A stretch of 64,000 nt of DNA from Chloroflexia bacterium (GCA_034436115.1 DAOTVY010000020.1:604-64603); one strand, 5' to 3'; counted from the first letter of the stretch, positions 23,457-43,848 are shown. Numbers and translations: made by a program. The notes: generated by a model from the sequence alone, not told the origin.

Positions 23457-25328
23457 TTAGCGGACCAGTTCGGTCAACCCGAGCTCGGCGAGTTTTTCCG
23501 GCGTGGGGATGCCGTTCTTGTCCCAGCCGCGCTGCTCATAGTACATATCGAGCAGCTGCTGCACTGCCTCGAAGGGCGTAAGCTGCCCCTTGGTCGGCCC
23601 CCCCGTGGAGGGGTGTTTATAGAAACGCGGGGCGGGATAGTCCCAGGTGCGGCCAAAGCCCTCGACCTCGCGGATCCAGTACATACGGGTCAGGTTCCAG
23701 GTTCGCTCCGAGATCTTCAGGAGGTCTTCCCAGGAGCGTTCGATCCCGGTAACCGCGGCCATCATCGGCGCATACTGGGTCACGTCGATGCCCAGTTCGA
23801 CCCACTGCAACCGGCAGGCGCCCATCGAATCGAAGAGTGGCCGGATGTGCTGCAGGAGGATCACCCGGGCGACTTTCTCTGGAGCCACCCGGTCCCGGCC
23901 AACCTGCAGGTCGTACGTGATCGCCCAGGCGCGGTTGTGGTGGGCGCCGACGTCCGCGGTCATGTAGGCGAGCAGCATGGCCGTGGCGTTGTGGGTCTCG
24001 TAGCCGCTCTGCTCCATCCCCTTGACCTGCACCGCGAACTCCTCGCTCCCCTGGCCGATCCGCTGGGAGGCGACCTTCACTCCCTCGGCGAGCAGGTTAC
24101 CGAGCCCCTCACGGCGGGCGATCTTTTCCAGAAGAGCGAAGGCCGCCTGCGCGTTTCCGAAGCGCAGGTCCAGGCCACCGGTATCCTCCGGGGTGAGCAG
24201 GCCGCGCTCGTAGCACTCCATGGCGAAAGCAACGGCGTTGCCCGCGGAGATGCTGTCGATGCCGAGCTCGTCGCACAGGTAGTTCCCGTAGGCGACGTCC
24301 TCGATGTCCCCCAGGGCGCAGTTGGAGCCCACGAGGGCGATCGTCTCGTACTCCGGTCCCTCGACAAAGACGCCGTGCTTCTTCGTGTAGGAGTACTTGC
24401 CGCAGGGGGAAGGGCAAGCGAAGCACCCCTTGTCGGTGATCACGATGCGCTCGCGCATGACCTGGCCGTAGAGGTTCGGGCCCTGCTCAAAGGACCCTTG
24501 CTGGAAGTTGCGCGTCGGGAGCGCACCGACTTCGTCACACCAGGAGGTGACGATCGTGGTGCCATACCGCTGCCAGGGGCCGAGACCTTCGGCTTCCTTG
24601 CAGGCGCGGAACATCGCATGAGCCAGTTCCCAGAAGCGCTCGGGGTCGGCCACCGGGATCGTCTTGCTACCCCGCACCGCCACCGCCTTGACCTTCTTGG
24701 CCCCCATCACGGCGCCCACGCCCCCGCGACCGGCCTGGCGGCCAAAGTCGTGGGTGATGCAGGCATACTTGACCAGGTTCTCTCCCCCCGGGCCAATGGT
24801 CGCGATCTGGAACTCCTCGCCCAGTCGCTTTTTCAGGATTTCTTCGGTGGTGATGGAGCCTTTGCCCCAGAGGTCGGAGGCGTCCCGCAGCTCCACCCGG
24901 TCGTCATCGATGAAGAGGTAGACCGGCTTGGGCGAGATGCCCTCGAAGATGATCGCATCGTAGCCGGCGTACTTGATCTCCGCCGTCAGGTGGCCTCCGA
25001 CGCTCGCGCCGGCATACCCTCCGGTCAGCGGCGACTTGCAGGCCCAATCCATCTTCCCTGCGCCCGGGACGAGCAGCCCGGAGAGCGGCCCGGTCGAGGC
25101 AACGAGTTTGTTTTCCGGCCCCAGTGGATCAGCCCCCTTAGGGACCTCCGTCCAGAGGTAGTAGATGCCCAGGCCTCGGCCGCCGAGGAAATCGCGAGCC
25201 ACCTTCTCGTCCAGCGGCTCTTTTCGGATTTCACTTGTGGTCAGGTTCACCCGCAGGATCGTACCGGCATATCCGTTCATGGTCGCTCCTCCGTCTGATT
25301 CGTCCCTATTCTGCGATGGACAGGACAT
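23457..25328 (-). CDS. Tungsten-type aldehyde:ferredoxin oxidoreductase (AOR family)
   Basis: 623 aa; AOR N-terminal MNGYAGTILRVNLTT...FLGGRGLG and overall AOR-family architecture. Confidence 0.8.
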   Translation of the reverse strand: MSCPSQNRDESDGGATMNGYAGTILRVNLTTSEIRKEPLDEKVARDFLGGRGLGIYYLWTEVPKGADPLGPENKLVASTGPLSGLLVPGAGKMDWACKSPLTGGYAGASVGGHLTAEIKYAGYDAIIFEGISPKPVYLFIDDDRVELRDASDLWGKGSITTEEILKKRLGEEFQIATIGPGGENLVKYACITHDFGRQAGRGGVGAVMGAKKVKAVAVRGSKTIPVADPERFWELAHAMFRACKEAEGLGPWQRYGTTIVTSWCDEVGALPTRNFQQGSFEQGPNLYGQVMRERIVITDKGCFACPSPCGKYSYTKKHGVFVEGPEYETIALVGSNCALGDIEDVAYGNYLCDELGIDSISAGNAVAFAMECYERGLLTPEDTGGLDLRFGNAQAAFALLEKIARREGLGNLLAEGVKVASQRIGQGSEEFAVQVKGMEQSGYETHNATAMLLAYMTADVGAHHNRAWAITYDLQVGRDRVAPEKVARVILLQHIRPLFDSMGACRLQWVELGIDVTQYAPMMAAVTGIERSWEDLLKISERTWNLTRMYWIREVEGFGRTWDYPAPRFYKHPSTGGPTKGQLTPFEAVQQLLDMYYEQRGWDKNGIPTPEKLAELGLTELVR

Positions 25329-25692
25329 TCATCCCGCAGAAGTTGACGCACTCGCCGCACAGGTCGCACTCGAACGGCTGATCGCGTCCCGGGATCTTGA
25401 AGATCACGTGCTCCGGGCAGGCGTCGATGCAGGCGTCGCAGGCGATGCAGAGCTCGGGATCGATGTAGTAGGCCCCCTTGTCATTCTGCGGGATCGCATC
25501 CACGGGGCAGACCTTGGCGCACTCGCCACATTGGGTGCAGACCCGTACTTCGTACTTCCCCGGGCTGGGGAAATGGGGAACGATGGCCAGGGCCGCCTTG
25601 CGGATGTTGTTCTCGCGGAAGTGGCTGAAGGCGCACGCAAGCAGGCAGGCCTTGCATCCGCTGCATTTGGAACTGTCGGCGTAGAGTCGCAT
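25306..25692 (-). CDS. 4Fe-4S dicluster ferredoxin-like protein (AOR partner)
   Basis: Multiple CxxCxxC...CP motifs in 128 aa; overlaps the AOR start by 23 nt. Confidence 0.75.
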   Translation of the reverse strand: MRLYADSSKCSGCKACLLACAFSHFRENNIRKAALAIVPHFPSPGKYEVRVCTQCGECAKVCPVDAIPQNDKGAYYIDPELCIACDACIDACPEHVIFKIPGRDQPFECDLCGECVNFCGMNVLSIAE

Positions 25693-25896: not shown

Positions 25897-25925
25897 TTGA
25901 CTTTGGTCTGCCCGTGCGCTATAAT
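25897..25925 (+). promoter_or_regulatory. Sigma70-like promoter of the lacI-family regulator (TTGACT-17-TATAAT) with an adjacent imperfect palindrome TGTGAACGATCAC (possible operator)
   Basis: TTGACT 25897-25902, TATAAT 25920-25925; the palindrome-like TGTGAACG/ATCAC lies immediately downstream. Confidence 0.5.
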
Positions 25926-25972: not shown

Positions 25973-26998
25973 ATGCATTCTCGGCCCACCATCCGTGATG
26001 TTGCCGAGCGGGCGGGGGTTTCTCGCCAGACGGTTTCCCGGGTGATCAACGGCAAACCGGAAGTCAGCCCCCAGACGCGGCTCCGTGTACTCGGGGTAAT
26101 TGAAGAGCTCGGGTACCGGCCCAGCGCGGTAGCGCGCAGCATGGTGACAGGGCGCACCTGCCTGCTCGGCTGCATTTCCCCCAACCTGGTGGACTATACC
26201 TTCGCGTGCATGATCGAGAACGCTCAGGCGGAAGCGCGGCGCCTGGGCTATTTCGTGCTTACCGGGAGCGCGCCCGCGGTCGCCGACGTGGAGCCGCTCC
26301 TGGAAGAGATGCTAAACCGCCACATCGATGGGCTGCTGGTCATGAACCCGCACGCCGATGAGCGCTATCGTTTCGTCCTTCCCCTCGTGAAACGCGGCCT
26401 GCCCATCGCTTACCTGAACGACCGACCCCGGGAGGAGCCTGTTTCCTCCGTGCGTTGCGACGACGTAGACGGCGGCTATCAGGCGACCCGCTACCTGATC
26501 GGGCTCGGGCACCGCGCGATCGCTACCATCCACGGTCCGACGCGCGAAACCTGTACGACCGATCGCCTACTGGGCTACCGGCAGGCGCTTGCGGAGGCCG
26601 GCCTAAAGGTCGATCCGGCGCTTGTGGTAGAAGGTGACTGGTCCCCCGAATCCGGCCATCGGGCGGTCCAGCGCCTGCTTGCTTCCCAACGGCCTTTTAC
26701 CGCCATCTTTGCCCAAAACGACCGTATGGCGATCGGGGCGATCCGCGCCCTGCAGGATGCCGGGCTTGGGGTTCCGGAGGACGTCTCCGTGATCGGGTTC
26801 GATGACATCCCGCTGGCTGCCTATTGCCATCCACCCCTAACCACCCTCTACCAGCCCATGGAGGAGTGCGGACGACGCGCCGTCCGCCTGCTCGTGGAGA
26901 CGATTGGGAACCCACACCGGTCTCCGGAGCAGGTACTGCTCAGGGCGCGTTTGGTGGAGCGGGGCTCGTGCGCTCCACCACCCCCTGAAAGGAGGTGA
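25973..26998 (+). CDS. LacI-family transcriptional regulator
   Basis: N-terminal HTH (TIRDVAERAGVSRQTVSRVING) followed by a periplasmic-binding-fold sugar-binding domain. Confidence 0.85.
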   Translation: MHSRPTIRDVAERAGVSRQTVSRVINGKPEVSPQTRLRVLGVIEELGYRPSAVARSMVTGRTCLLGCISPNLVDYTFACMIENAQAEARRLGYFVLTGSAPAVADVEPLLEEMLNRHIDGLLVMNPHADERYRFVLPLVKRGLPIAYLNDRPREEPVSSVRCDDVDGGYQATRYLIGLGHRAIATIHGPTRETCTTDRLLGYRQALAEAGLKVDPALVVEGDWSPESGHRAVQRLLASQRPFTAIFAQNDRMAIGAIRALQDAGLGVPEDVSVIGFDDIPLAAYCHPPLTTLYQPMEECGRRAVRLLVETIGNPHRSPEQVLLRARLVERGSCAPPPPERR

Positions 26999-27073
26999 TG
27001 TGCAGGGAACGAAATCGGCTCATCCTTTGCCCCGGCAGAGCGATGGTGCCTGCCGCAAGCGAGGAGGAATGCG

Positions 27074-28108
27074 ATGAACGCCCGAAAGTTCGCTCTCTTG
27101 GCCTGCATCGGCGTGCTGCTGCCGCTGATCCTGTTGGCCTGCGGCCCGACACCGACCGCGGCCCCCGGTGGCGCCACCCCCGCAGCGCCGACCGGCCGGC
27201 TGTGTGAGGGGGTAAAGATCGTCTTCTTCCCCGGCGGCCCGCCCGGCTGACCGTTCGCCACCGTGGTATACAACGGCGCGGTCGCTGCCGCTTCAGACCT
27301 CGGTGCGAACGTAGAGTACGTCTTCTCGGACTGGGATCCAGAAAAGATGGTCCGCCAGTGCAAGGAGGCCATCGCCACCAACCCGGACGGGATCGCGATC
27401 ATGGGCCACCCCGGTGACGAAGCCCTCTCTGCCTGTGTCGATGAGGCCGAGAGCAAGGGGATCATCGTCACCAGCCAGAACACCACCCTGCCGAAACTGG
27501 AAGCCAAGTACAAGTCGAAGGGCTTTGGCTATGTGGGACAGGAGCTCTACCAGTCGGGTTACCTGCTGGGCCAGGAGGCCGTCAAGCGAGGGAACCTGAA
27601 GCCCGGCGACCGGGCGATGGTGTGGGGCCTTCTGTCTCAGCCCACGCGGGGCCTGCGCACCCAGGGAGTCATTGATGCCCTGAAGGAGGCCGGCCTGGTG
27701 GTCGACTATATCGAGATCGACCCGGCCACCAACGCGGACCCGACGAACGGTACTCCCGTCTTCACCGGGTACGTATCGGCCCATCCGGATGTCAAGGTCG
27801 TCTGCACGGATCACGGCGGGCTGACCTCTACCATGGAGACCTACCTCAAGGCGGCCGGCAAGGGGCCCGATGACATCTACGCCATCGGCTTCGACCTGTC
27901 CTCGGCCACCCTGGCGGCTATCCGCGGCGGCTGGACGGACCTTGTGCTCGACCAGCAGCCGTGGCTGCAGGGCTACCTGCCGATCGTGCAGATCTGCCTG
28001 ACCAAGAAGTACGGCTTCTCCGGGTTGCACATCGACACTGGCTCCGGCTTTGCCGATAAGAGCAACATCGAGATGCTCGCGCCGCTCGTGGAGAAGCAGA
28101 TCCGCTGA
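27074..28108 (+). pseudogene. Sugar ABC transporter substrate-binding lipoprotein interrupted by an in-frame TGA (27248-27250) between the lipoprotein signal peptide and the mature domain
   Basis: ATG at 27074 (SD GAGGAGG) encodes MNARKFALLACIGVLLPLILLACGP... (lipobox LLAC). The same frame continues after the TGA as PFATVVYNGAVAAAS... (ribose/galactose-type SBP fold). The stop falls at the position of the conserved x-PFF motif. Confidence 0.6.
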
Positions 28109-28151
28109 GCCGGATCCGTCCGGGAGTCCACCGGGCGGCTCATAGGACGCC

Positions 28152-28222
28152 GGGGCAAACGGCGCCAGGCCCGCCGGCGAGCCCGGCCCGTTGCCGCGGA
28201 GGCACCTGGCGTCGTTTGCCCC
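28152..28222 (+). other. Long intercistronic stem-loop (18-bp arms with one G-U, 34-nt loop) between the SBP and ABC ATPase genes
   Basis: GGGGCAAACGGCGCCAGG ... CCTGGCGTCGTTTGCCCC; no strong U-tract follows. Confidence 0.5.
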
Positions 28223-28303
28223 CATTTACGGGGAGCCATCTTCAGCTCCCCAGCCGTCGACGTGGCTCGTCGGCGAGGGCGGGCCACAAGGGGGTTCAGT
28301 GGT

Positions 28304-29110
28304 ATGGAATACCTACTCGAAATGCGGAATATCTCCAAGAGGTTCGGAGAGGTTCAAGCGCTCCGGAACGTGAACTTTTGCGTTCGCTACAACGAGGTCG
28401 TCGGCCTGCTCGGCGACAACGGGGCCGGGAAATCGACCCTGATCAAGATCGTCACCGGCTACCACCAGCCCGATAGCGGCGAGATCTATTTCAACGGCCG
28501 CAAGATCGAACGGCTTTCGGTCTCGGAAGCACGCCGATTGGGAATCGAAACGGTCTATCAGGAACGTGCTCTGGCCAACCTGCAGAGCCTCTGGCGCAAC
28601 ATCTTCATGGGACGCGAACTCACCACGATGCTGGGCTTCCTGGATGTCGCCAAGATGCGCCGCGAAACCGAAAAGCTGATGGTCGGCTCCATGGGCTTTA
28701 CCTCGGCGGCCGTGGTTCCCGATTCCGTGGTGGGGACATTTTCGGGGGGCGAAAAGCAGGGCGTGGCGATCGTACGCGCCCTTTACTTCGAGGCCGAACT
28801 GATCATCCTGGACGAGCCCACCATGGGCCTTTCGCTTTCGGAAACCCGCAAACTCCTGGATTTTGTCCGGGGCATCAAAGAGGCCGGCAAGTCGTGCATC
28901 TTTATCGACCACAATGTCTTCCACGTCTACTCGGTCGCAGACCGGGTGGTCGTTCTGGACCGCGGCGCTGTCGCAGGCGAGTTCTTGACAAAGGATATCA
29001 CCCTGGAGCAGCTGATGGACATGATGTACCGGGTCGCTCAGACGGGCAGGCTTTCCGAGAACAACACCGAATGCCTCCCTGCTGCTCCGATAGGTACGGA
29101 AACACCGTAA
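28304..29110 (+). CDS. Sugar ABC transporter ATP-binding protein (single ABC domain)
   Basis: Walker A GDNGAGKST, signature FSGGEKQ, Walker B LIILDEPT. Confidence 0.85.
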   Translation: MEYLLEMRNISKRFGEVQALRNVNFCVRYNEVVGLLGDNGAGKSTLIKIVTGYHQPDSGEIYFNGRKIERLSVSEARRLGIETVYQERALANLQSLWRNIFMGRELTTMLGFLDVAKMRRETEKLMVGSMGFTSAAVVPDSVVGTFSGGEKQGVAIVRALYFEAELIILDEPTMGLSLSETRKLLDFVRGIKEAGKSCIFIDHNVFHVYSVADRVVVLDRGAVAGEFLTKDITLEQLMDMMYRVAQTGRLSENNTECLPAAPIGTETP

Positions 29111-29120
29111 GGAGCCACTG

Positions 29121-30179
29121 ATGACAATGGACAAGCGAAACCCCGCCGCCACGGGAGCGAACGCCCATGCGGAAGCGCCGGCCGCCCTCGCCCGCCGCGT
29201 TGCGCCGCAAGCTGGGGGGGTCCCGCGCTGGATACGACGGAACGCCCTTCAGATCGGCATCACCTGTGTCTTGCTGCTCCTTTGGGGGCTGTTCCTCGTG
29301 CGCGCGCCGGCTACCTTCTTCAGCAAGAACATCTACGCCGCCTTGATGTCTACGGTGCCCTTCTTTGCCATCATGGCGCTCCCCCTGACGATGGTGGTCA
29401 TCGCCGGCGAGATGGACCTCTCGTTTCCTTCCATCATGGGGTTCGGCATGGTCGTTTTCGTGCACGTGTTGGAGGCCACGAAGAGCCCAGGCCTAGCGTT
29501 CCTGACCTGCCTGCTCTCCGGCTTTCTGGCAGGCCTCCTGAACGGCACGATCGTCGTGCGATTGGGGCTCCCCTCCCTGGTCGCCACCATCGGTACCCAG
29601 TTCTTCTGGCGCGGCGTCGTGGACGTGATCACCCAGGGACAGCCGGCCTCCCTTGTGTCGGTGAAACCCACCTTGCTCCAGCGACTGCTTGTCGGGCGTG
29701 TGGGCGGGTACGTTCCGGCTCAGGTGCTGTGGATGATCTTTGTGGCGGTCGTGGTGTGGGTCTTCCTGAACCGCCACCGCTTCGGCGCTCACGTCTACCT
29801 GATCGGAGATAACCGCGAGAGCGCCCGACTGATGGGTGTCAACGTCGACCGCGTCCGCATGCTCGTCTTTGCCGTCGTAGGCCTGGCGGCAGCGTTCGCT
29901 GGTGTGCTGGCAAGCCTCGAGGTCTCCTACTTCTGGGTGACCCTGGGCGAGGGATACTTGATGCGCACTCTGGCTTCCGTTTTCCTCGGCGGTACTTCCG
30001 TCTTCGGCGGCCAGGGAACGATCTACGGCACCTTCATCGGTTGCTTTATCATCGCGATCATCGAGCCCGGCCTGGTGGCCATGGGGTTGACCGGCTTCTG
30101 GACCAAGCTGATCTATGGCTTCATCATTACCGCCTCCGTCGCCATGCACGCCGTGCTGAGCCGCCGTCTCGCCCGGTAA
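29121..30179 (+). CDS. Sugar ABC transporter permease (ribose/branched-chain type, about 9 TM)
   Basis: Hydrophobic 352-aa protein with the conserved permease loop pattern. Confidence 0.8.
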   Translation: MTMDKRNPAATGANAHAEAPAALARRVAPQAGGVPRWIRRNALQIGITCVLLLLWGLFLVRAPATFFSKNIYAALMSTVPFFAIMALPLTMVVIAGEMDLSFPSIMGFGMVVFVHVLEATKSPGLAFLTCLLSGFLAGLLNGTIVVRLGLPSLVATIGTQFFWRGVVDVITQGQPASLVSVKPTLLQRLLVGRVGGYVPAQVLWMIFVAVVVWVFLNRHRFGAHVYLIGDNRESARLMGVNVDRVRMLVFAVVGLAAAFAGVLASLEVSYFWVTLGEGYLMRTLASVFLGGTSVFGGQGTIYGTFIGCFIIAIIEPGLVAMGLTGFWTKLIYGFIITASVAMHAVLSRRLAR

Positions 30180-30216
30180 CACGCAGGCCCATGGGCCGGC
30201 ACGCAGGAGGCCCACG

Positions 30217-31326
30217 GTGAAACACCGCGAACGGGTCTGGCTCGCCCTCCATCACGAGGAACCGGACCGTTGCCCGATGCAAATCAGCTTCACCCCGGAG
30301 TTCGCCGCCCGCTTGCGGGAGCAATTGGGCATCCGCGACGAGGAACTGTATAACCCCCACGGTGGCGGAAACACCTACATCCTGGAGCGCATGCTCGACG
30401 AGGACATGCTCCTCACCTCCGTCGGTTGGGCCAACTCCTATTACGCGACCGAGCGGTACAGCCAGGACGGCATTTCCTATACCGACGAATGGGGGGTGGG
30501 GTGGCGGAACGTTCCCTACCGGACGCGCTTCGGGATCGGCCACTACACCGAGATGGTCCACCACCCGCTTTCTGACGACGCCGCGATCGCCTCCTACCGT
30601 CCGCCGGATCCCAACCGGCCGGAGCTCTACGAAGAGGCCGCGCGTGTCGTGCGGGAGTTCAAGGACGAGTATTGGATCGTTGGGGTCACCGTGACGACGA
30701 TCTTCGAGACGGCCTGGGCCCTGCGCGGCTATGAACGGCTACTGATGGACCTGGTGGAGGACCCGGATCGGGCCGAGTACATTCTCGATATCCCGTTCCG
30801 TTTCCACCTCACTGCTGCGCAAAGGCTGGTCGAACTCGGGGTGGATATGATCTGGATCGGGGACGACGTGGGGGCCCAAGACCGGATGCTCATCTCACCG
30901 CGGATGTGGCGCCGCTTCCTCAAGCCGCGTATGGCCACCTTCATCGCTACCCTGAAAGCGATCCGGCCGGAGCTCCAGGTCGCCTACCACTCCGACGGCT
31001 ACATCTACCCGATCATCCCCGACCTCATCGAGATCGGGCTGGACGTGCTGAACCCGGTGCAACCACGCTGCATGGACCCGGAGCAGTTGAAGAAGGAGTT
31101 CGGGGCCCATCTTTCGTTCTGGGGCTCGCTGGACGAACAGCATACCTTGCCCTTCGGTACCCCGGAAGAGGTAGAGGCCGAGGTACTTGCCCGCCTGAAG
31201 ACGCTTGGCAAAGGCGGGGGCCTCATCCTGGGGCCCACCCATCACGTGCAGCTGGACACGCCTCTGGAGAACTTCTGGGCCATGGTACACACGATCACCC
31301 GCACGCCCTACCGTTCCCTTAGCTAG
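30217..31326 (+). CDS. Uroporphyrinogen decarboxylase (URO-D) family protein, paralog 1
   Basis: MKHRERVWLALHHEEPDRCPMQISF... and URO-D/MtaA-like TIM-barrel blocks (MIWIGDDVGAQDRMLISP, GLDVLNPVQP); 369 aa. Confidence 0.7.
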   Translation: MKHRERVWLALHHEEPDRCPMQISFTPEFAARLREQLGIRDEELYNPHGGGNTYILERMLDEDMLLTSVGWANSYYATERYSQDGISYTDEWGVGWRNVPYRTRFGIGHYTEMVHHPLSDDAAIASYRPPDPNRPELYEEAARVVREFKDEYWIVGVTVTTIFETAWALRGYERLLMDLVEDPDRAEYILDIPFRFHLTAAQRLVELGVDMIWIGDDVGAQDRMLISPRMWRRFLKPRMATFIATLKAIRPELQVAYHSDGYIYPIIPDLIEIGLDVLNPVQPRCMDPEQLKKEFGAHLSFWGSLDEQHTLPFGTPEEVEAEVLARLKTLGKGGGLILGPTHHVQLDTPLENFWAMVHTITRTPYRSLS

Positions 31327-31414
31327 CCCGTCGCCGCATCCCGAGTGGCGGTCTGGCCCGGGAGATCGCAAGGACCGTGGAACACCAAAAACACCGGTTT
31401 GCCCGGAGGAGGCA

Positions 31415-32452
31415 TTGGCTTTCCAGACGACCTTGACCCCCCGAGAACGTGTGCGCCGAGCGCTGGCGCGGGAACCCGTCGATCGGCTGCCGACTCAGGT
31501 GAACGTCACCGCGGCCTTGGGCCAGCGGCTGTGCAATGCCTGGGGCATTCCTCCAGAGGCCCTCGCTGCCCGGCTGGACAACCACCTCTTGAGGTTGGAA
31601 CTCACGTTTCCCAGCCGGAAAAGCCCGGACGGCCGCGTCGTCTACGACTGGTGGGGAGTGGGCTGGAGCACGGAGACCGAGGGCTATTGGCCTGTATACT
31701 CGCCCCTGGCGGAATCGAAGGACCTCGACCGATACCCCTGGCCCGATCCCAACGATCCGCATTTGCTGGACGAGGCCGCACGCGCACTAGCCTCGGACGC
31801 GGGGGAGCATTTCTCCTTGCCCAATTTCGGCTTCTGTCTCTTCGAGCGCGCCTGGGCGTTGCGCGGCTTCGAGCGTTTCCTTCTGGACCTCGTGGACGAT
31901 CCGGCGTTTGCGGAGGAACTGCTGGAGCGGATCGCCGAAATCCAACTGGTGCTGGCGCGCCGCTTCTTAGCCTTGGGGGTAGATGGGGGCTACTTCGGGG
32001 ACGATTACGGAGGGCAAAACGGCCCGCTCTTTTCGCCGCGCCTCTGGAGGAAACTGATCCAGCCCCGACTGGCCCGCCTGTTTGCGGTCTTTCGTGAGGC
32101 TGGCCGGCCGGTCATCCTGCATTCGGATGGCGACATCGCCCCGATTCTGCCCGACCTCGTGGAGATCGGCCTTTCAGCGCTGAACCCCGTCCAGCCCGAG
32201 GTGCTTGACCATGTCTGGCTCCAGGAGACCTTTGGGCACAGGCTGGCTTTCTATGGGGGCATCTCGAGCCAAAGCGTCCTCCCCCAGGGGACTCCGGACC
32301 AGGTGCGGGCTGCCGTCTACGCCTGCCGAACCAGCCTCGCCCCCGAGGGGACCGGACTGATCCTGGCGCCTTCCCATCGGCTGACCAGCGATGTCCCCGT
32401 AGCGAATGTGGAAGCGTTACTCGCCGCTTTCCGCGAAGGAGCTGAGATATGA
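31415..32452 (+). CDS. URO-D family protein, paralog 2 (start uncertain: TTG 31415, TTG 31433 or GTG 31451)
   Basis: LTPRERVRRALAREPVDRLP aligns with the N-termini of paralogs 1 and 3; conserved GLSALNPVQP block. Confidence 0.6.
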   Translation: MAFQTTLTPRERVRRALAREPVDRLPTQVNVTAALGQRLCNAWGIPPEALAARLDNHLLRLELTFPSRKSPDGRVVYDWWGVGWSTETEGYWPVYSPLAESKDLDRYPWPDPNDPHLLDEAARALASDAGEHFSLPNFGFCLFERAWALRGFERFLLDLVDDPAFAEELLERIAEIQLVLARRFLALGVDGGYFGDDYGGQNGPLFSPRLWRKLIQPRLARLFAVFREAGRPVILHSDGDIAPILPDLVEIGLSALNPVQPEVLDHVWLQETFGHRLAFYGGISSQSVLPQGTPDQVRAAVYACRTSLAPEGTGLILAPSHRLTSDVPVANVEALLAAFREGAEI

Positions 32453-33642
32453 CCGCTGGCGCTGCCCGAAGAAAACGGGTCACCGAGGCCTTCGAGGCTG
32501 CGTATGGAGATCGGCCGACCCTTTGGGTCCGCGCTCCGGGCCGCGTGGACCTCATGGGAAGCCACACGGACTATAACCAGGGGTTCGTGCTCACCCTCCC
32601 GATCCGCCGGGACACCTGGATCGCTGCGCGGCCGCGGCCGGACCAGATCGTGCGCATCCGCTCGCTCAACCTGGGGGGAGAAAGTTGCTTCGAGCTGCAT
32701 ACGATCGAACGAGACGAAGAGCACCGCTGGGCGAACTACGTGCGCGGTGTCGCTTTCGTCCTTCAGCGGGAAGGGCTTCCCCTGGTGGGGTTCGACGGAC
32801 TCGTCCATAGCACCGTCCCTCTGAGCAGCGGACTGTCCTCTTCGGCCGCGTTGGAAGTGGCCACCGCGGTTCTGTTCCGAGCGCTCGGGGGCTGGGAAAT
32901 CGAACCGCTTCGCCTTGCCCTCCTCTGCCAGCGGGCGGAGAACGAGTTCGTGGGGATGAACTGCGGCATCCTGGACCAGTATACCTCCCTCCTGGGGCAG
33001 GAGGGGTACGCCCTGCTGCTCGATTGCCGGGCGTTGACCCACCGCCCAATCCCGCTGCCCCAGGAACTGAGCGTGGTCATCTGCGACACCCGCGCCCGAA
33101 GGGAGCTCACTGGCTCCGAGTACGGACAGCGGCGGGCGCAGTGCGAGGAAGGGGTACGCATCCTTTCCGGTTTTCTTCCCGGCGTGAGGGCCCTGCGGGA
33201 TGTCTCGCGCGAGCAGTTCCTGCGGTATGAAGCGCAGCTTCCCCCCGTGGTCGCCCGCCGCTGTCGGTTTGTGATCGAGGAGAACGAGCGCGTGCTCCGG
33301 CTCGCCGAGGCGCTCGGGACTCACGACCGGGGGCAGATCCGAGAGCTGATGGTCGCTTCCTACCAGGGAGCACGGGACCTTTACGAGATCGGCTCGCCCG
33401 AGATGGCCGCGATGATCGAGGCGATGGAAAGCGCTCCGGGCGTCGTGGGAGCACGGCAGGCCGGGGCTGGTTTCGGCGGGTGCATGGTCGCGCTCGTGGA
33501 GCCAGCCCAGGTACCCGCGTTCGCGGAAGCGGTGCGCCGGCAATACCGCGCGATCACCGGAATCGAACCCGAGATCTACCCCGAGGGGGCAGGGGCCGGT
33601 GCCGGCCTACTGGCCGAATCGGCTGAGGAGGAAAGGGCATGA
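32449..33642 (+). CDS. GHMP kinase, galactokinase-like sugar-1-kinase
   Basis: Galactokinase signature GRVDLMGSHTDYNQGFVL, GHMP motif PLSSGLSSSAALEVA, C-terminal GAGFGGCMVALV. Confidence 0.8.
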   Translation: MTAGAARRKRVTEAFEAAYGDRPTLWVRAPGRVDLMGSHTDYNQGFVLTLPIRRDTWIAARPRPDQIVRIRSLNLGGESCFELHTIERDEEHRWANYVRGVAFVLQREGLPLVGFDGLVHSTVPLSSGLSSSAALEVATAVLFRALGGWEIEPLRLALLCQRAENEFVGMNCGILDQYTSLLGQEGYALLLDCRALTHRPIPLPQELSVVICDTRARRELTGSEYGQRRAQCEEGVRILSGFLPGVRALRDVSREQFLRYEAQLPPVVARRCRFVIEENERVLRLAEALGTHDRGQIRELMVASYQGARDLYEIGSPEMAAMIEAMESAPGVVGARQAGAGFGGCMVALVEPAQVPAFAEAVRRQYRAITGIEPEIYPEGAGAGAGLLAESAEEERA

Positions 33643-34787
33643 AGCCACGCGAGCGTGTCTTGTTGGCGCTGAACCACCGCGAACCGGACCGGGTCCCCAT
33701 CGACCTGGGCGGGACCATCTGTTCGTCCATCCATCGCCAGGCTTACGTGGCACTCAAAGAGCACCTGGGCATGGAAGTCGAGCCCCTACGGCTGGTCGAC
33801 TATGTGCAGCAACTTCCCTACCTGGACGAGGCGCTGCTGGAGCGACTGGCGGTGGACTTTCGCATGGTCCAGCTCCCCGCGGCAACCGCACCCCAAGTGG
33901 AGATCTTCCAGGAGGGCGACTACGAGGCGTTTTACGACCGCTGGGGATCCAAGCTCCGCCGGCCCAAGAGAGGGGGATTGTACTTCGACTGGGTCGAATT
34001 CCCGATCCGCGAGCCCACGCCAGAGGCACTAGAGGCTTACCGGTGGCCGGATCTCGATCCGCCGGAGCAGCTCGCGGAGCTACGCCGCCAGGCGGAGTAC
34101 CTTTACCATCACACCGACTATGCCCTAGTCGGGAGCGCCATCATCGGTGGGGGCATCTTCGAGCAGCCGGCCCGCATGATGGGGCTGGAGAACTTTTTCA
34201 TGGCCCTGGTCACCGAACCCCGGTTTGCCGACCGGCTGATGGAACAGATCACGGACCTGTATATCGAGTCGTGCGACCGCTACCTGGACCAGGTAGGGGA
34301 ATTCCTTCAGGTGTTCACCTATTGGGACGACCTGTGCGGCCAGGACGGATGGCTGATCTCTCCGGAGCTGTACCGCAAGATGATCAAGCCGAAACAGCGT
34401 CGGCTGCTGGAAGCCATCCGGAAAAAGACGCAGGCTAAGGTCTATTTCCACTCCTGCGGTGCGGTGTACGACCTTGTCCCGGATCTGATTGAGCTGGGGT
34501 TCGATATCCTGAACCCGGTCCAGGTGTCGGCACGGGGCATGGACACGCGGCGCCTGAAGCAAGAATACGGCCAAGACATCGTCTTTTGGGGCGGAGGCGT
34601 GGACACACAACACATCCTGCCGTTCGGCACCCCGCAACAGGTCCGCGACGAGGTGCGGCGGCGCATCGAGGACCTGGCCCCCGGCGGCGGTTTCATCTTT
34701 GCCGCCGTCCATAACATCCAGGCCGGAGTCCCTCCGGAGAACATCGTCGCAGCCTTCGAGGCAGCTCTCGAATACGGCAGGTACTGA
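33639..34787 (+). CDS. URO-D family protein, paralog 3
   Basis: MKPRERVLLALNHREPDRVPIDLGG..., GFDILNPVQV; 382 aa. Confidence 0.7.
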   Translation: MKPRERVLLALNHREPDRVPIDLGGTICSSIHRQAYVALKEHLGMEVEPLRLVDYVQQLPYLDEALLERLAVDFRMVQLPAATAPQVEIFQEGDYEAFYDRWGSKLRRPKRGGLYFDWVEFPIREPTPEALEAYRWPDLDPPEQLAELRRQAEYLYHHTDYALVGSAIIGGGIFEQPARMMGLENFFMALVTEPRFADRLMEQITDLYIESCDRYLDQVGEFLQVFTYWDDLCGQDGWLISPELYRKMIKPKQRRLLEAIRKKTQAKVYFHSCGAVYDLVPDLIELGFDILNPVQVSARGMDTRRLKQEYGQDIVFWGGGVDTQHILPFGTPQQVRDEVRRRIEDLAPGGGFIFAAVHNIQAGVPPENIVAAFEAALEYGRY

Positions 34788-36414: not shown

Positions 36415-38097
36415 TTACCCTGAAAGAGGCTCGGCCAGCGCTTCTTCGGCCGCCCGGAGTACCTCTCCCCGGTGCACCAGTTCGGTCAATACCTCGATAT
36501 CCGGCTGGAGGAATCGATCCCGTTCCAGGAAAGGCACGTGGGAGCGAATCAGCCGGTACACGGCAGCGGTCCCCCGGCCCAGGGCGGGCGGCCCCTGCTC
36601 CGGGCCCAACAGGTCCACCGCCTGGGCAGCGCACAGGAGCTCGATGGCAACCACGTACTCTACGTTCCGAACCACCCGGCGGGCGTGCAGGGCCGCGTTG
36701 GCGCTCATGCTGACATGGTCCTCCTGATCCTCGCAGGTCGGGATGGAATCGACGCTATCCGGGTGGGCCAGGGTCTTGTTCTCGGACACAAGGGCTGCCG
36801 CAATGTACTGAGGGATCATCAATCCCGTGTTCAGCCCGCTTTCCCGGACCAGCATCGGAGGAAGCCCATCGCTCAGCTGCCGCGTGAGGAGCCGGAAGAT
36901 GCGTCGCTCGGCGATGCTGCCTACCTCGGCGATCGCAATCGCCAAAATATCCGCAGCCAGGGCAACCGGCTCCCCGTGGAAGTTGCCGCCCGAAAGGGCC
37001 TTGTTCTCCCGCTCCAGCTCGGGGAAGAGGAGCGGGTTGTCCGTCACCGCGTTCAGCTCCCGCTCCAACACCTGGCTCACGAACTTCAGGACGTCGGCTA
37101 CCGCGCCCAGCACCTGCGGGGCACAACGGAGGGAATAGGCGTCCTGCACCCGGAGAGCCGAGCCAACCAGGCGGCTTCCCTCGAGCAGCCGCCGCACCCG
37201 CGCGGCACAAGCTACCTGCCCAGGCTGGTTGCGCAGATGGTGGATTCGGTCGTCGTAGGCATCGGCCGCCGCCCGCAACGCCTCCAGAGAAAGGGCCAGC
37301 GCGATCTCGGACTGGAGCAGCAGCTGCTGCGCGTCGCAGAGCGCCAGCGCGGCGATCGCGGTGGAAACCGCGGTGCCGTTGTTCAATGCCAGACCTTCCT
37401 TGGCCCCCAAGACCACGCGCGAGAGGCCGGCCCGTCGCATGGCTTCCGCGCCGCTCACGCGCTCGCCGCGGTAGATGGCTTCACCGCTAGGTTCCTCCGA
37501 ACCCTCCGGATCCCGCGCGAGCACCAGCACCAGGTGCGAAAGGGGCGCCAGGTCCCCGCTCGCGCCCAGCGAACCCATCGCCGGAATCACCGGGTGCACT
37601 CCCCGGTTCAGCATCTCGAGAAGCGTCTCCAACGTTTCCAGCCGGATCCCGGAGTATCCCCGGGCCAGGGTGTTGGCACGGATGAGCATCGCCGCCCGCA
37701 CCACTTCCTCCGGCAGCGGATCGCCGACCCCACAGGCGTGGCTCACGATCAGGTTGTAGGACAGGCGATCGGCATGGTCCGCCGGGACCGACACGTTGGC
37801 CAGAGAGCCAAACCCGGTGTTCAGCCCGTACACCAACGGTTCCCCACGGCCGGCCACTTCGTCTACCCAGGCGCGACAGCGCCGGACTGCCCGCCGTGCC
37901 CCCTCCGCGAGGGCCACCGGGCGGCCGAAACGCGAGACCGCAACCAAGTCCTCCAACGTCAGGTGCTCGCCGTCGAGCAGAAGCGGGGCTTCGGAACGCT
38001 CCAGAGCCAAATTCGTACCTCCTCGTAGCGGATCGGCCCGCAGGAAAAGGCCTGGAACTATTCTACTATACCTGACGGGTGGCCGCAAACCGGGCAC
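36415..38097 (-). CDS. hutH: Histidine/aromatic amino acid ammonia-lyase (MIO-dependent)
   Basis: MIO-forming ASG triad in GSLGASGDLAPLSHL, and GLNTGFGSLANV; 560 aa. The histidine/phenylalanine/tyrosine specificity is not resolved. Confidence 0.75.
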   Translation of the reverse strand: MPGLRPPVRYSRIVPGLFLRADPLRGGTNLALERSEAPLLLDGEHLTLEDLVAVSRFGRPVALAEGARRAVRRCRAWVDEVAGRGEPLVYGLNTGFGSLANVSVPADHADRLSYNLIVSHACGVGDPLPEEVVRAAMLIRANTLARGYSGIRLETLETLLEMLNRGVHPVIPAMGSLGASGDLAPLSHLVLVLARDPEGSEEPSGEAIYRGERVSGAEAMRRAGLSRVVLGAKEGLALNNGTAVSTAIAALALCDAQQLLLQSEIALALSLEALRAAADAYDDRIHHLRNQPGQVACAARVRRLLEGSRLVGSALRVQDAYSLRCAPQVLGAVADVLKFVSQVLERELNAVTDNPLLFPELERENKALSGGNFHGEPVALAADILAIAIAEVGSIAERRIFRLLTRQLSDGLPPMLVRESGLNTGLMIPQYIAAALVSENKTLAHPDSVDSIPTCEDQEDHVSMSANAALHARRVVRNVEYVVAIELLCAAQAVDLLGPEQGPPALGRGTAAVYRLIRSHVPFLERDRFLQPDIEVLTELVHRGEVLRAAEEALAEPLSG

Positions 38098-38689: not shown

Positions 38690-39778
38690 ATGGCCAGACG
38701 TGTCGCCTTCCCGCCGTTGGGCGTCCTGAGCCTGGTGGCAGAAAAGTATCTCCAGGTCCTCGGGACAGAAGTGGTTTCCACTCCCCCGGTGTCCCGGCGC
38801 ACCCTGGACATCGGAATCCAGCACACGCCCGAGATGCTCTGCATCCCGTGCAAGCTTCTGTTCGGGAGCTACCTCGAGGCTGCGGAACGCGGTGCGACCG
38901 AGCTGGTGATGCTCGGGGGTGCCGGCACCTGCCGCCTGGGCTACTCGGCGCTTCAACACGCCCGACAGCTGCGGGCACTTGGGTTCGACGTCCGGGTCCA
39001 CACCCTGGACCTCTACCACGTGCACCGGGATCTGCTCCGACTGACGCGTGCCTTCAGCGGGGGCCGGCCACTGCGCGAGCTGTTGACGCCTATCCGGTTC
39101 CTGTTGGGCCTGCTGGAACTGACCGACGCCATCGAAACGGAGACCCTCCGGCTGCGGCCCCGGGAATGTGTGCCCGGGGCGACGGATGCTGCCCGTGTCA
39201 GGGCGCTTGAGCAAGTCGCCCGGTTGCAGAACTACAGGGAATTGAAGGCGGAACAGGATGCGATCCTCGATCTCCTGCGCCGGGTAGAACACGAACCGGA
39301 CCGACCGGTGCTCCGGATCGGGCTGGTTGGAGATGTCTATACGATCCTCACCCCGTTCCTCAACCACAACCTGGAGCGGGAACTCGCCCGAATGAACGTA
39401 GAGGTGCGGCGGTGGTTCCACTATACCGGGCGTATCGTCCCGCCGCTGCCCGCCTGGTTGCGGCGAGACCGGAGAGCGCGGGCGCGGCTGGCCGGGAAGC
39501 GCTACCTGAAGCGGGATGTCGGCGGGTTCGCCCGTTCGGCGGTGGGGGAAGCAGCCCTTATGGCGCAAGAAGGGGAAGTCGACGGCTTGATCCACGTGGC
39601 GCCCTTCAACTGTACCCCGGAGCTGGTGGCCCAGAGCGCGCTGGTGGCGCTCCATCGCGACCGTGGCATGCCGGTGCTGAACCTGCTGTTCGACGAGCAG
39701 ACAGGCCGGGCAGGTGTATTGACCCGCCTGGAGGCGTTTGTGGACATGCTCTGGACAGCGCGTAGGGCGAGGGGGTGA
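38690..39778 (+). CDS. DUF2229-like protein (acyl-CoA dehydratase activase-associated family), paralog A
   Basis: 362 aa; shares conserved blocks with the downstream paralog (LDxGIQxTPExLCxPCKLLFG; GLVGDVYTILTPFLNHNLERELARMNVEV; GLIHVAPFNCTPE...RLEAFVDML). Confidence 0.55.
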   Translation: MARRVAFPPLGVLSLVAEKYLQVLGTEVVSTPPVSRRTLDIGIQHTPEMLCIPCKLLFGSYLEAAERGATELVMLGGAGTCRLGYSALQHARQLRALGFDVRVHTLDLYHVHRDLLRLTRAFSGGRPLRELLTPIRFLLGLLELTDAIETETLRLRPRECVPGATDAARVRALEQVARLQNYRELKAEQDAILDLLRRVEHEPDRPVLRIGLVGDVYTILTPFLNHNLERELARMNVEVRRWFHYTGRIVPPLPAWLRRDRRARARLAGKRYLKRDVGGFARSAVGEAALMAQEGEVDGLIHVAPFNCTPELVAQSALVALHRDRGMPVLNLLFDEQTGRAGVLTRLEAFVDMLWTARRARG

Positions 39779-39781
39779 ACC

Positions 39782-40735
39782 ATGCGCGTGGGTGTTCCTC
39801 GAGCGCTGGCCTTCTTCCGCTTCCACCCCGGGTGGGACGGCTTCCTGCGCTCCCTGGGGATCGAGGTGGTGGTCTCGCCGCCCAGCAACCGCTCTATCCT
39901 GGAAGCCGGGTTGCCCTACACGGTCCCGGAGGCCTGCCTCCCCCTCAAGCTCTTCTTCGGCCATGTGCGGGCACTGGTGGGAAAGGTGGACGCGCTCCTT
40001 GTCCCTTCCATCCAGCGCTTTGCCGCGGGTTCCACGAACTGCGCCAAACTGATCGGATTGCCGGACCTGCTGCAAGCCACGATGGAGGACTTGCCGCCGC
40101 TGATCGCCCCGGACATCGACCTGAGCGCGGGCTCTGCTGGCCTGTGGAAAGCGGCGTTCGAGGTGGGGAAGGTGTTGGGCCGCAATCCCATCCAGCTCCG
40201 CGAAGCGGCCCAGGCCGGGTGGGCCGCCTATCTGCGTGCCCGCGCGGCGATGCTCGAGGGCAGCCTGACCCCTGCGGCCTTTGACCAGCCCATCCGTGCG
40301 CCCTCGCCTCCCCCGGGCGGTCCTACCGTGGCTGTCGTAGGACACCCATACAACCTCTACGATCCCTTTGTCAACCACAACCTGCTGGCCCGTTTGACGC
40401 GACTGGGCGTGGATGTGCTGACCCCCGAACGGCTGGGCCCCTGGCCATCGGCCGAGTATTGGACCTTCGAGTACGAACTGGTCGGGGCCACCCGGTTGGC
40501 GATGGAGCGGGAACAGGTGGAAGGACTGATCGCCGTCGCTGCTTTCGGCTGCGGGCCCGACGGGGTGATCCTGGAGGAAGTGCGTTCCCTGGCGGGGCAG
40601 GCTGGCCTTCCGGCGATGGTGCTCACGGTCGACGAGCATAGCGGCGAGGCTGGCTGGGTCACGCGCGTCGAGGCCTTTGTGGATATGCTCCTTTGGCGCC
40701 GGCGAGGCGAGCATGTCCGGGCATCGGAGGGATGA
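39782..40735 (+). CDS. DUF2229-like protein, paralog B
   Basis: AVVGHPYNLYDPFVNHNLLARLTRLGVDVL; LIAVAAFGCGPDGV...RVEAFVDMLL; start 4 nt after the upstream stop. Confidence 0.55.
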   Translation: MRVGVPRALAFFRFHPGWDGFLRSLGIEVVVSPPSNRSILEAGLPYTVPEACLPLKLFFGHVRALVGKVDALLVPSIQRFAAGSTNCAKLIGLPDLLQATMEDLPPLIAPDIDLSAGSAGLWKAAFEVGKVLGRNPIQLREAAQAGWAAYLRARAAMLEGSLTPAAFDQPIRAPSPPPGGPTVAVVGHPYNLYDPFVNHNLLARLTRLGVDVLTPERLGPWPSAEYWTFEYELVGATRLAMEREQVEGLIAVAAFGCGPDGVILEEVRSLAGQAGLPAMVLTVDEHSGEAGWVTRVEAFVDMLLWRRRGEHVRASEG

Positions 40736-40738
40736 AGC

Positions 40739-41695
40739 GTGGGCAAAAAGATCTACCTGGGCATCGACGTAGGCTCGGTAACGACCAAGATCGTCGCTAT
40801 GGACGAGGCAGGAACTCTGGTGAGCTCGCTCTACCGGCGGACGGCCGGCCGCCCGATCGAGACCATCCAGGAGGGATTGCGTTGGCTGCAGGGGCACCTT
40901 CCGCCCCAGGTGGAAGTGGCCGGTGTGGGGACGACCGGAAGCGGCCGCCAGTTGTGCGGCGTGATCGTCGGCGCCGACGTCGTGAAGAACGAGATCACCG
41001 CCCATGCGGTGGCCGCCTTGCACTGTGTTCCCAACGTTCGCACGGTCATCGACATCGGGGGACAGGACTCCAAACTGATCGTGCTCGAGAACGGGGTCGT
41101 GGTCGATTTCGCGATGAACTCGGTCTGTGCCGCCGGCACCGGCTCCTTCCTGGAGCAACAGGCGAACCGGCTGGGCATCACGCTGCAGGAGCTTGGGCAG
41201 CGGGCCTTGCGCTCGCACCACCCGGTGCGGATCGCCGGGCGCTGCACGGTCTTTGCGGAATCGGACATGATCCACAAGCAGCAGATGGGCTTCCCTCTAG
41301 ATGACATCCTCTATGGGTTGTGCCAGGCCCTGGTGCGCAACTACCTGAACAACCTGGCCCTTGGCAAGACACTCCACCCACCGGTCGTGTTCCAGGGAGG
41401 AGTGGCTGCGAATGTCGGGGTGGTCCGCGCCTTTCAGGAAGCGCTGGGAACCGAGGTGATCGTACCCCAACACCACGAGGTCATGGGTGCAATCGGGGCC
41501 GCCCTGCTGGCACGGGAGTGGGTGGACGGCCGGCCTACCCGCTTTCGCGGGTTCGACGCAGCCTGGAGCGACTATCGCGCCTCTTCCTTCGAATGCCGTG
41601 CCTGCCCGAACCGTTGTGAGATCGTACAGATCCAGATGGGCGGGGAGATCGTTGCCCGCTGGGGCGGCCGCTGCGAGCGGTGGGACGTGAGCTGA
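40739..41695 (+). CDS. BadF/BadG/BcrA/BcrD (HgdC-like) ATPase, a CoA-substrate-specific enzyme activase homolog
   Basis: N-terminal YLGIDVGSVTTKIVAMDE (actin-fold ATPase), FAMNSVCAAGTGSFLE, C-terminal Cys motifs CRACPNRC. Confidence 0.7.
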   Translation: MGKKIYLGIDVGSVTTKIVAMDEAGTLVSSLYRRTAGRPIETIQEGLRWLQGHLPPQVEVAGVGTTGSGRQLCGVIVGADVVKNEITAHAVAALHCVPNVRTVIDIGGQDSKLIVLENGVVVDFAMNSVCAAGTGSFLEQQANRLGITLQELGQRALRSHHPVRIAGRCTVFAESDMIHKQQMGFPLDDILYGLCQALVRNYLNNLALGKTLHPPVVFQGGVAANVGVVRAFQEALGTEVIVPQHHEVMGAIGAALLAREWVDGRPTRFRGFDAAWSDYRASSFECRACPNRCEIVQIQMGGEIVARWGGRCERWDVS

Positions 41696-43281: not shown

Positions 43282-43824
43282 CTAGTACTCGATCCCCGCC
43301 CGCGCAGGCACTCCGGCGGCATAGGGGTGCCGGATCTCCCGCATCTCGGTCACCAGGTCGGCCCGTTCGAGCAATTCCTGCGGCGCGCGCCGGCCGGTAA
43401 GGATCAACTCGACCCCCTGCGGCCGCTCATCCAATAGCGCCAGGACCTCTTCCAGCGAGAGCAGCCCGAAGTAGACGGCCACACAGACCTCGTCCAGCAC
43501 CACGATGTCATACTGCCCGCTGTGGAGAGCCTCCCGCGCCCGTGCCAGGCCGTCGTGGGCACAGCGGATGTCTTCGGGGGTGGCGCGCTCGACGTGGACG
43601 AAGGAAGGCCGCCCGTACTGTTCGATCGTCAAATACGGTGCGAGCCGCCGCGCCGCCTCCAACTCCCCGTAGGGGAGGCCCTTCATGAACTGGCCGATGT
43701 AGGTGTACAGGCCGTGGCCGGCCGCGCGCAACGCCAACCCCAGGGCGGCGGTCGTCTTGCCCTTACCGTCCCCGGTGTACACCTGCACAAGCCCACGACG
43801 CTTCGTCTCCTTGCTTTCGGACAC
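43282..43824 (-). CDS. cobO: Cob(I)yrinic acid a,c-diamide / cob(I)alamin adenosyltransferase (CobO/BtuR type)
   Basis: GLVQVYTGDGKGKTTAALGLALRAAGHG P-loop and DEV...YGLL blocks typical of CobA/CobO. Confidence 0.8.
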   Translation of the reverse strand: MSESKETKRRGLVQVYTGDGKGKTTAALGLALRAAGHGLYTYIGQFMKGLPYGELEAARRLAPYLTIEQYGRPSFVHVERATPEDIRCAHDGLARAREALHSGQYDIVVLDEVCVAVYFGLLSLEEVLALLDERPQGVELILTGRRAPQELLERADLVTEMREIRHPYAAGVPARAGIEY

Positions 43825-43848
43825 GGGACCCTCCAGTGCCGGGCCGGG

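Follow-up and report, generated by a model that had tools for sequence, protein, structure and literature searches.

The characterised substrate:corrinoid methyltransferases (MT I) with the fold of uroporphyrinogen decarboxylase (UroD) act on aryl methyl ethers or methyl halides, are partnered by a corrinoid protein and a pterin-type second methyltransferase (MT II), and vary in their dependence on zinc (PMC13222342). The only carbohydrate O-demethylase found in the literature searched belongs to a different chemistry, a cytochrome P450 of marine Bacteroidetes that demethylates 6-O-methyl-D-galactose in an O2-dependent reaction and releases formaldehyde (PMC6292453). Here, an operon is described from a 64-kb stretch of DNA of a Chloroflexia bacterium (GCA_034436115.1, DAOTVY010000020.1:604-64603; hereafter the window), in which three UroD-superfamily genes, designated U1, U2, and U3, follow a LacI-family regulator and a sugar transporter and surround a galactokinase-like kinase. 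The genomic context makes it an even call that this operon serves the corrinoid-dependent demethylation of an imported O-methylated sugar of the galactose or arabinose type. The locus is real and conserved, and the literature search turned up no characterised system that explains it, nor any account of a UroD/corrinoid system at sugar loci or of such a reaction on sugars.

By sequence and predicted fold, the closest relative of the three paralogs is MtaA, the methylcobamide:coenzyme M methyltransferase. Domain calls with Pfam and NCBIfam place U1, U2, and U3 in the UroD superfamily (PF01208; 101.8, 88.4, and 90.3 bits, respectively, against a gathering threshold of 23.9). The three proteins are 31-39% identical to one another (U1/U2 39%, U1/U3 33%, U2/U3 32%) and have in common the N-terminal motif RERV..AL...E.DR.P, much as the original prediction had described it. 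The best NCBIfam models for all three are the MtaA/CmuA methyltransferases, and the only solved relative with a significant sequence match is MtaA of Methanosarcina mazei (PDB 4AY7/4AY8), for which the E-values against 4AY7 are 4.8e-12 with the single U1 sequence, 4e-14 with a U1 profile, and 3.6e-6 with a U3 profile. HemE and CdmB structures give marginal sequence matches. An AlphaFold2 model of U1 (mean predicted local distance difference test 79.8, predicted template-modelling score 0.83) retrieves MtaA as the top Foldseek match (E 2e-15, template-modelling (TM) score 0.69-0.74), followed by UROD structures (TM 0.61-0.70) and then MetE. HemE thus shares the superfamily and the fold, but its equivalog model, TIGR01464, matches U3 alone, at 21.6 bits against a cut-off of 303, and there is no haem context. 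Canonical HemE identity, one of the two findings that would have undone the original prediction, is ruled out for U1-U3 by these model scores. The clade of U1 is large, with 1,222 representatives of 50%-identity clusters at E <= 1e-30.

Similar to MtaA and MtbA, the paralogs are predicted TIM barrels that keep the His of the H-x-C-G zinc motif, and orthologs of U1 have an MtaC-like corrinoid protein as partner. The main differences from MtaA/MtbA are the low identity (~20%), scores far under the family cut-offs, the replacement of the Cys/Cys ligands by Asp/His or Cys/His, and the setting, which is a bacterial sugar operon without coenzyme M context. The MT I enzymes of bacterial and archaeal O-demethylase and dehalogenase systems (OdmB of vanillate/veratrol, MtvB, MtoB, and CdmB) offer a parallel to the proposed logic: MT I works alongside a corrinoid protein and an MT II of the pterin type, and several MT I paralogs are found per genome. 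Their substrates, however, are aryl methyl ethers and methyl halides with good leaving groups, whereas the context here is that of an aliphatic sugar methyl ether; in addition, the sequence match to CdmB is very weak (E 0.28), and the corrinoid protein is not always found in the cluster. The mlp clusters of Kountz and Balskus, which are defined by >25% identity to characterised coenzyme M methyltransferases and are without sugar context (PMC10418091), are a different group from these paralogs.

Conservation of the locus was followed in 86 related loci (individual loci are given as L007 and so forth), which were fetched, their open reading frames (ORFs) called and clustered, and the clusters named by Pfam and NCBIfam; a U1 gene was called in 82. 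Relatives of U1 that are 66-79% identical to the window protein (94% in the close relative L007) include hundreds of metagenomic proteins. These orthologs come from sediments, peat, and digesters, and the metagenome-assembled genomes (MAGs) that carry them belong to Anaerolineae, further Chloroflexota, Acidobacteriota, Spirochaetia, Desulfobacterales, and additional groups. A core module of binding protein, ATPase, permease, and U1, with U1 directly after the permease, is present in ~35 loci, across which the binding protein is 59-98% identical, and a LacI gene lies ahead of the transporter in 23 related loci. Orthologs of U3 (68-81% identical) adjoin U1 in 21 loci, often flanking a gene for a corrinoid protein, and the pair of U2 and kinase occurs in seven loci besides the window. 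The same arrangement is seen in independent genomes and so cannot be put down to chance, and the neighbourhood search proposed with the original prediction disposes of the objection that the cluster might not be conserved: it is found across many Chloroflexota and beyond.

The link to corrinoid chemistry is provided by these related loci. In 19 of the 82 loci, a corrinoid protein is encoded beside U1, either adjacent or within ~2 kb. This protein (209 residues) is composed of B12-binding_2 and B12-binding domains with a DxHxxG motif; it is of the MtaC/MtgC type and reaches 206.8 bits with the "methyltransferase cognate corrinoid protein" model. With CP denoting the corrinoid protein, typical gene orders are U1-CP-U3, U3-CP-U1, U1-CP-c7, and CP-U1-c14-c15, where c14 is an aldose-epimerase-like protein, c15 is a further UroD paralog, and c7 is a protein of ~365 residues without a Pfam, NCBIfam, or PDB match. 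The UroD paralogs are the only candidate methyltransferase partners in the loci that contain the corrinoid protein. In three loci (L006, L015, and L070), a Pterin_bind homolog of methyltetrahydrofolate:corrinoid methyltransferases is encoded near U1, in L015 in the order U1-U2-kinase-methyltransferase. Orthologs of ~70% identity that stand beside a corrinoid protein almost certainly share their chemistry with the U1 of the window, to judge from their similarity, and U1-U3 are therefore read as putative corrinoid-dependent methyltransferases of the MT I type. The c7 gene adjoins U1 in 14 loci (for example, L006:11111-12208), often in the order U1-CP-c7, and c7 may be a very divergent methyltransferase partner. 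It is not claimed here as UroD-like, as hhalign against U1 returned only 5% probability even though the aligned motifs are in register.

Several observations weigh against this assignment. The operon and the rest of the window are without a corrinoid protein, a pterin methyltransferase, and a RamA-type activase. Searches of the window with tblastn found no corrinoid protein (using a query from an orthologous locus), no member of the c7 family, and no pterin methyltransferase, and no RamA-like activase was seen among the scanned neighbours of the related loci. The earlier statement that no corrinoid protein is present here therefore stands for the window and fails for the family. The remaining 63 of the 82 U1 loci have no adjacent corrinoid protein, in contrast to characterised O-demethylase clusters, which usually keep the corrinoid protein beside MT I, and outside Chloroflexota U1 is often found alone amid unrelated genes. 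The TIGR01463 (MtaA/CmuA) scores of 77.0, 67.2, and 52.8 bits fall well below the cut-off of 235.4, and the Cys ligands of MtaA are missing from the paralogs. Finally, U1 is constant beside variable paralogs, namely U3, c7, c15, and U2b (related to U2 at ~35% identity and found in sister loci), a pattern that would fit an MT II-like role for U1 as well; against such a role, several loci have U1 as their sole UroD gene behind the permease. Any one of the paralogs may be the MT I, and any one the MT II, if there is one among them.

The residues at the putative metal site differ from those of MtaA. At the columns of the MtaA zinc ligands (H-x-C ... C), U1 has the invariant residues His258, Asp260, and His342/343, U3 has His271, Cys273, and His358, and in U2 and related proteins the second position is either Asp or Cys, with His at the first and third. 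In place of the His-x-Cys ... Cys ligands of the MtaA/CmuA subfamily, the window proteins thus contain H-S-D...H (U1 and U2) and H-S-C...H (U3). In the wider clade, for which 150 representatives were compared, the prevailing pattern is H-[ST]-D-G plus a distal His, and the U2b group, like U3, keeps a Cys at one zinc-ligand column. A sugar methyl ether is aliphatic and has a poor leaving group; in MtaB, zinc activates methanol. By analogy, a hard His/Asp/His Lewis-acid site would suit the activation of an ether oxygen and would suit thiolate activation less.

A His/Asp/His triad is also typical of Lewis-acid sugar enzymes, and UROD itself is cofactor-free, such that the paralogs could be cobamide-independent TIM-barrel enzymes of the UroD/MetE kind (metal-dependent sugar-acid decarboxylases, isomerases, or epimerases) with an incidental corrinoid adjacency. 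The absence of the corrinoid protein from the window and from most loci would agree with this explanation, as would the xylose isomerase barrels that appear as weak matches far down the Foldseek list for the U1 model. It is nonetheless unlikely: corrinoid genes are uncommon, yet they stand beside a 66-79%-identical U1 in 19 loci that offer no other methyltransferase candidate; pterin methyltransferase genes are present in three loci; HemE models barely score; and no uronate or aldarate pathway genes recur among the neighbours of the related loci.

The genes that do recur around the U1 orthologs point to a product with galactose or L-arabinose configuration. They encode ribulokinase (AraB; 788 bits against a cut-off of 583, 13 loci), L-ribulose-5-phosphate 4-epimerase (AraD; nine loci), arabinose isomerases (AraA; canonical or FucI-like), galactose mutarotase (GalM), and canonical galactokinase (GalK), together with glycoside hydrolases, namely GH42 beta-galactosidase and GH51 and GH127 arabinofuranosidases; in three loci of Acidobacteriota, the GH42 gene immediately precedes U1. 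The original prediction had offered a sugar acid or a methyl sugar as the substrate. The sugar acid finds no support in these neighbours, which belong to neutral galactose and L-arabinose and include no uronate genes, whereas the methyl sugar is favoured by the corrinoid protein and pterin methyltransferase genes described above. In a separate observation, a creatinase/prolidase-like M24 protein recurs in eight related loci (for example, L003:14236-15333); it shares a locus with the GH51 alpha-L-arabinofuranosidase in L001 and L008, and the GH127 beta-L-arabinofuranosidase is also present in L001.

The kinase of the window operon has the features of a galactokinase, scoring 316.9 bits on TIGR00131 (cut-off 226.65), containing the GalKase_gal_bdg, GHMP_N, and GHMP_C domains, and being closest to human GALK1 (2e-71). 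Its signature, GRVDLMGSHTDYN, departs from the canonical one in reading GSHTDY, with Ser in place of the Glu of GEHTDY. This Ser aligns with Glu43 of GALK1, a residue that contacts the sugar. The Ser variant is found in all eight U2-linked kinases (the window, L007, L015, L021, L027, L044, L045, and L078), whereas GEHTDY is retained in all five galactokinases without U2 linkage in the same loci. Because of this partition, U2 and the kinase look like a co-evolved module, and the U2-linked kinase may prefer a modified galactose or have an otherwise altered sugar specificity. Neither galT nor galE is found in the window operon.

Gene content, homology, fold, conserved synteny, and the corrinoid-protein adjacency in orthologous loci are observed; that the reaction runs as a demethylation, that its substrate is an O-methyl sugar, where the metal binds, and what the individual paralogs do are inferred. 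In corrinoid-dependent sugar demethylation, a small methylated neutral sugar with galactose or L-arabinose stereochemistry would be imported via the lipoprotein binding protein, the half-size ATPase, and the permease, and its methyl group or groups would then be taken off without oxygen. U1, U2, and U3 would act as UroD-fold methyltransferases of the substrate:corrinoid type, in which a metal on His-x-Asp/Cys...His would polarise the sugar-O-CH3 bond, as zinc does with methanol in MtaB. The methyl group would be accepted by the cob(I)amide of a small corrinoid protein, from which a pterin-type methyltransferase would hand it to tetrahydrofolate. The released galactose-type sugar would be phosphorylated at C1 by the U2-coupled kinase, L-arabinose in sister loci would follow the AraA/AraB/AraD route, and LacI would repress the operon in the absence of substrate. 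For this genome, the scheme requires genes outside the window for the corrinoid protein, MT II, and a reductive activase. Similar to the P450 demethylase, the proposed system would free galactose from a methylated sugar for central catabolism; unlike that unrelated protein, which needs O2, it would operate under anoxic conditions and keep the methyl group on cobamide and folate. The organism is an anaerobe, with aldehyde:ferredoxin oxidoreductase (AFOR) and a BcrAD-type activase encoded in the window, and could not use an O2-dependent P450 route; a corrinoid adenosyltransferase (CobA) is encoded there as well (Table 1).

The binding protein of the transporter contains a second unusual feature. 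The ORF listed for it spans 27263-28108, and the real gene start is the ATG at 27074, which opens a lipoprotein signal peptide, MNARKFALLACIGVLLPLILLACG, followed by a TGA in frame within FFPGGPPG-*-PFATVVYNGA. This TGA is kept in L007, in L087, and in L089 and L090, the last two being independent European Nucleotide Archive assemblies of the same organism. L087 is a more distant contig, and the L007 MAG has 87% nucleotide identity around the TGA, with synonymous changes in the flanking codons. Comparison of the window and L007 3' of the TGA reveals 75 synonymous and three nonsynonymous codon differences, so the part downstream of the TGA is translated and functional. Recurrence in independent assemblies and two diverged relatives, together with the strong purifying selection downstream, rules out a sequencing error or a recent pseudogene. 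In the 120 closest homologs, the TGA column is occupied by Gly in 63 and by Cys in 50 (GGPPGCPF). When a solved CUT2 binding protein is aligned, this column corresponds to the polar residue in its beta1-alpha1 ligand loop. In one further homolog (89% identical; L088:77-79, JGI Ga0129297_10037549), the loop column holds Cys and a TGA is found instead at the lipobox Cys codon (LVVA-*-GPT versus LLLACGPT); only a single contig shows this, and the TGA may stem from an error, mark a pseudogene, or be recoded in its turn.

That UGA is read as selenocysteine (Sec) in this organism is probable, since a UGA codon of selD in the same window lies exactly at its active-site motif. The selD gene is part of a selenium cluster on the - strand (6495-11055), 16-21 kb away; the window lacks selA, selB, and tRNA-Sec. 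With respect to the binding protein, a small G+C hairpin that follows the UGA resembles the hairpin after the selD UGA (GGCGCAG-GUG-CUGCGCC). All three UGA variants can form such a hairpin, with GGUC or (in L087) AGUG as its loop; bacterial selenocysteine insertion hairpins are expected 16-37 nt downstream of the UGA, with G/U in the apical loop. Some Cys and Gly orthologs fold similarly, and the hairpin is for this reason only suggestive; an Rfam scan for selenocysteine insertion sequence (SECIS) elements gave chance-level matches only. A crude scan of the window for other genes split by TGA found ordinary gene boundaries only, and the same scan missed selD. On balance, these sequence features make the binding protein a candidate selenoprotein, somewhat more likely than not. 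The only Sec-containing ABC (ATP-binding cassette) binding protein in the literature searched is SaoB, which was stated to be the first one known (Haft and Gwadz, 10.1101/2022.07.06.499078). As in SaoB, an ABC substrate-binding protein here would have Sec or Cys in its ligand pocket, but SaoB is of the nitrate/sulfonate/taurine-type family and has a CU motif, whereas the present protein is of the CUT2 sugar type with a single U/C/G column. Because the two binding-protein families differ, a CUT2 sugar-binding protein with Sec would represent a new family of selenoproteins.

The Cys or candidate Sec in the ligand loop of about half of the close binding-protein homologs, the selD-yedE-yedF cluster at 16-21 kb, and the Cys at one zinc-ligand column in U3 and the U2b group would also fit a substrate other than an ether. 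With the family and the corrinoid chemistry unchanged, the substrate could be an S- or Se-methyl (methylthio- or methylseleno-) sugar, or one paralog could be an MtaA-like MT II acting on a thiol or selenol acceptor; thiol methylation is the reaction of MtaA, the nearest relative among characterised enzymes, and MtaA-like gene clusters have been proposed for methyl-sulfur and methyl-selenide compounds (PMC10418091). This explanation is less probable again. The hard-ligand His/Asp/His sets of U1 and U2 are unlike the thiolate-activating His/Cys/Cys, Gly occupies the Cys/Sec column in 63 of the 120 most similar binding proteins, the neighbouring GalK, GalM, and AraA/AraB/AraD require ordinary hydroxyl sugars, and the ~20% identity of U1 to MtaA lies under the >25% that defines the Mlp family. 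An ordinary operon for galactose or arabinose uptake and entry into the Leloir pathway, with UroD paralogs of unrelated housekeeping function (haem synthesis or methionine-related methyl transfer), would account for a kinase above the galactokinase cut-off and for common cargo of CUT2 transporters, but it is barely credible given U1 directly after the permease in ~35 loci, the 4-nt overlaps of U2 and U3 with the kinase, the distinct variant that the U2-linked kinase represents, the failure of the HemE equivalog model, and an operon without galT and galE.

The operon proposed for sugar demethylation occupies 25973-34787 on the + strand in a genome of 65% G+C, and the regulator, binding protein, single-domain ATPase, permease, and three UroD paralogs were all found in the order and at the places originally predicted (Table 1). 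It is bordered upstream by a divergent ferredoxin/AFOR pair, which has a divergent promoter-like site of its own (consensus match only), and downstream by a convergent Crp-family gene. A search for a LacI operator gave no convincing palindrome. The Peripla_BP_4 binding protein and BPD_transp_2 permease would suit a CUT2 importer; the ATPase is single- rather than double-domain. In textbook CUT2 systems the ATPase is a fused double domain of ~500 residues, and the match of the window protein (~268 residues) is limited to positions 1-234, the first half, of such models. An ATPase with a single nucleotide-binding domain (~250-270 residues) is found in ~34 related loci too, with one permease gene. 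The best start of U2 is a TTG at 31415, preceded by GGAGGAGG. The kinase does sit between U2 and U3 with genuine 4-nt overlaps, as had been predicted; ATGA forms both junctions, which suggests translational coupling.

Table 1. Positions of the operon, the selenium-related genes, and other features of the window
Feature	Position	Strand	Details
Secreted protein (>1,462 residues, cut by window edge)	3-4391	+	Kelch, S8 subtilase, and PKD domains
yedF-like gene	6495-7109	-	TusA + DsrE
selD TGA codon	8114-8116	-	At active-site motif G-x-G-(C/U)-x-x-K; SAAG-U-AAK
yedE-like gene	8471-9778	-	Sulf_transp
Class-V aminotransferase	9880-11055	-	Cysteine desulfurase / selenocysteine lyase type
AFOR (tungsten-type) and 2x[4Fe-4S] ferredoxin	23457-25692	-	Divergent from lacI
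Sigma-70-like promoter before lacI	25897-25925	+	TTGACT-17-TATAAT, 11/12, consensus match only
LacI-family repressor	25973-26998	+	PF00356 6e-20; PF13377 1.6e-42
CUT2-type sugar-binding lipoprotein	27074-28108	+	Peripla_BP_4; read through in-frame TGA
In-frame TGA, candidate Sec codon	27248-27250	+	Beta1-alpha1 ligand loop; FFPGGPPG-U-PFATVVYNGA
Small G+C hairpin, possible SECIS core	27275-27289	+	GGCGC-GGUC-GC(U)GCC, 27 nt after UGA
Half-size ABC ATPase	28304-29110	+	One ABC_tran domain; alternative GTG start 28262
ABC permease	29121-30179	+	BPD_transp_2
U1, MtaA-like putative corrinoid methyltransferase	30217-31326	+	UroD superfamily, PF01208 5e-29
U2, UroD-superfamily paralog	31415-32452	+	PF01208 6e-25; always paired with Ser-variant kinase
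GHMP sugar-1-kinase, galactokinase variant	32449-33642	+	TIGR00131
U3, UroD-superfamily paralog	33639-34787	+	PF01208 1.6e-25; H-S-C-G motif
Aromatic amino-acid ammonia-lyase	36415-38097	-
Two DUF2229/HGD-D-like genes and BcrAD/BadFG-type ATPase	38690-41695	+	Dehydratase-like system (see text)
Corrinoid adenosyltransferase (CobA)	43282-43848	-

Other genes of the window and of the related loci are recorded here as separate observations. The arrangement of AFOR and ferredoxin genes divergent from lacI is kept in L007 only; because the linkage is limited to this close relative, it is treated as coincidental, and AFOR was set aside as a link to formaldehyde or another aldehyde. Downstream of the operon, the two DUF2229/HGD-D-like genes and the BcrAD/BadFG-type ATPase resemble a system of the 2-hydroxyacyl-CoA dehydratase kind plus an activator for it, and they are adjoined by the ammonia-lyase gene. 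The secreted protein is found at the beginning of the window. In L029 (11110-13952), L081, and L085, the genes immediately after U1, or after U1 plus the corrinoid protein gene, encode a glycyl-radical enzyme (PFL-like, 696 residues) and its radical-SAM activase.

Algal galactans, plant walls, and microbial polymers all contain methylated sugars, which stand in the way of ordinary sugar catabolism. It is possible, but stated here only tentatively, that a widespread, uncharacterised, oxygen-independent pathway exists in which UroD-fold methyltransferases use a cobamide to break aliphatic methyl ethers in galactose- and arabinose-type sugars, fed in this lineage by a Sec-bearing binding protein. 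If this is true, the operon names candidate genes for an anoxic route of sugar demethylation and would answer how anaerobes use methylated sugars. Corrinoid demethylases would gain a new substrate class, aliphatic ethers handled at a His/Asp/His site, and the fermentation of sugars would be linked to C1 and folate metabolism. Sec in the binding protein, if confirmed as that new selenoprotein family, would hint at a chemically unusual ligand or at unusual handling of it.

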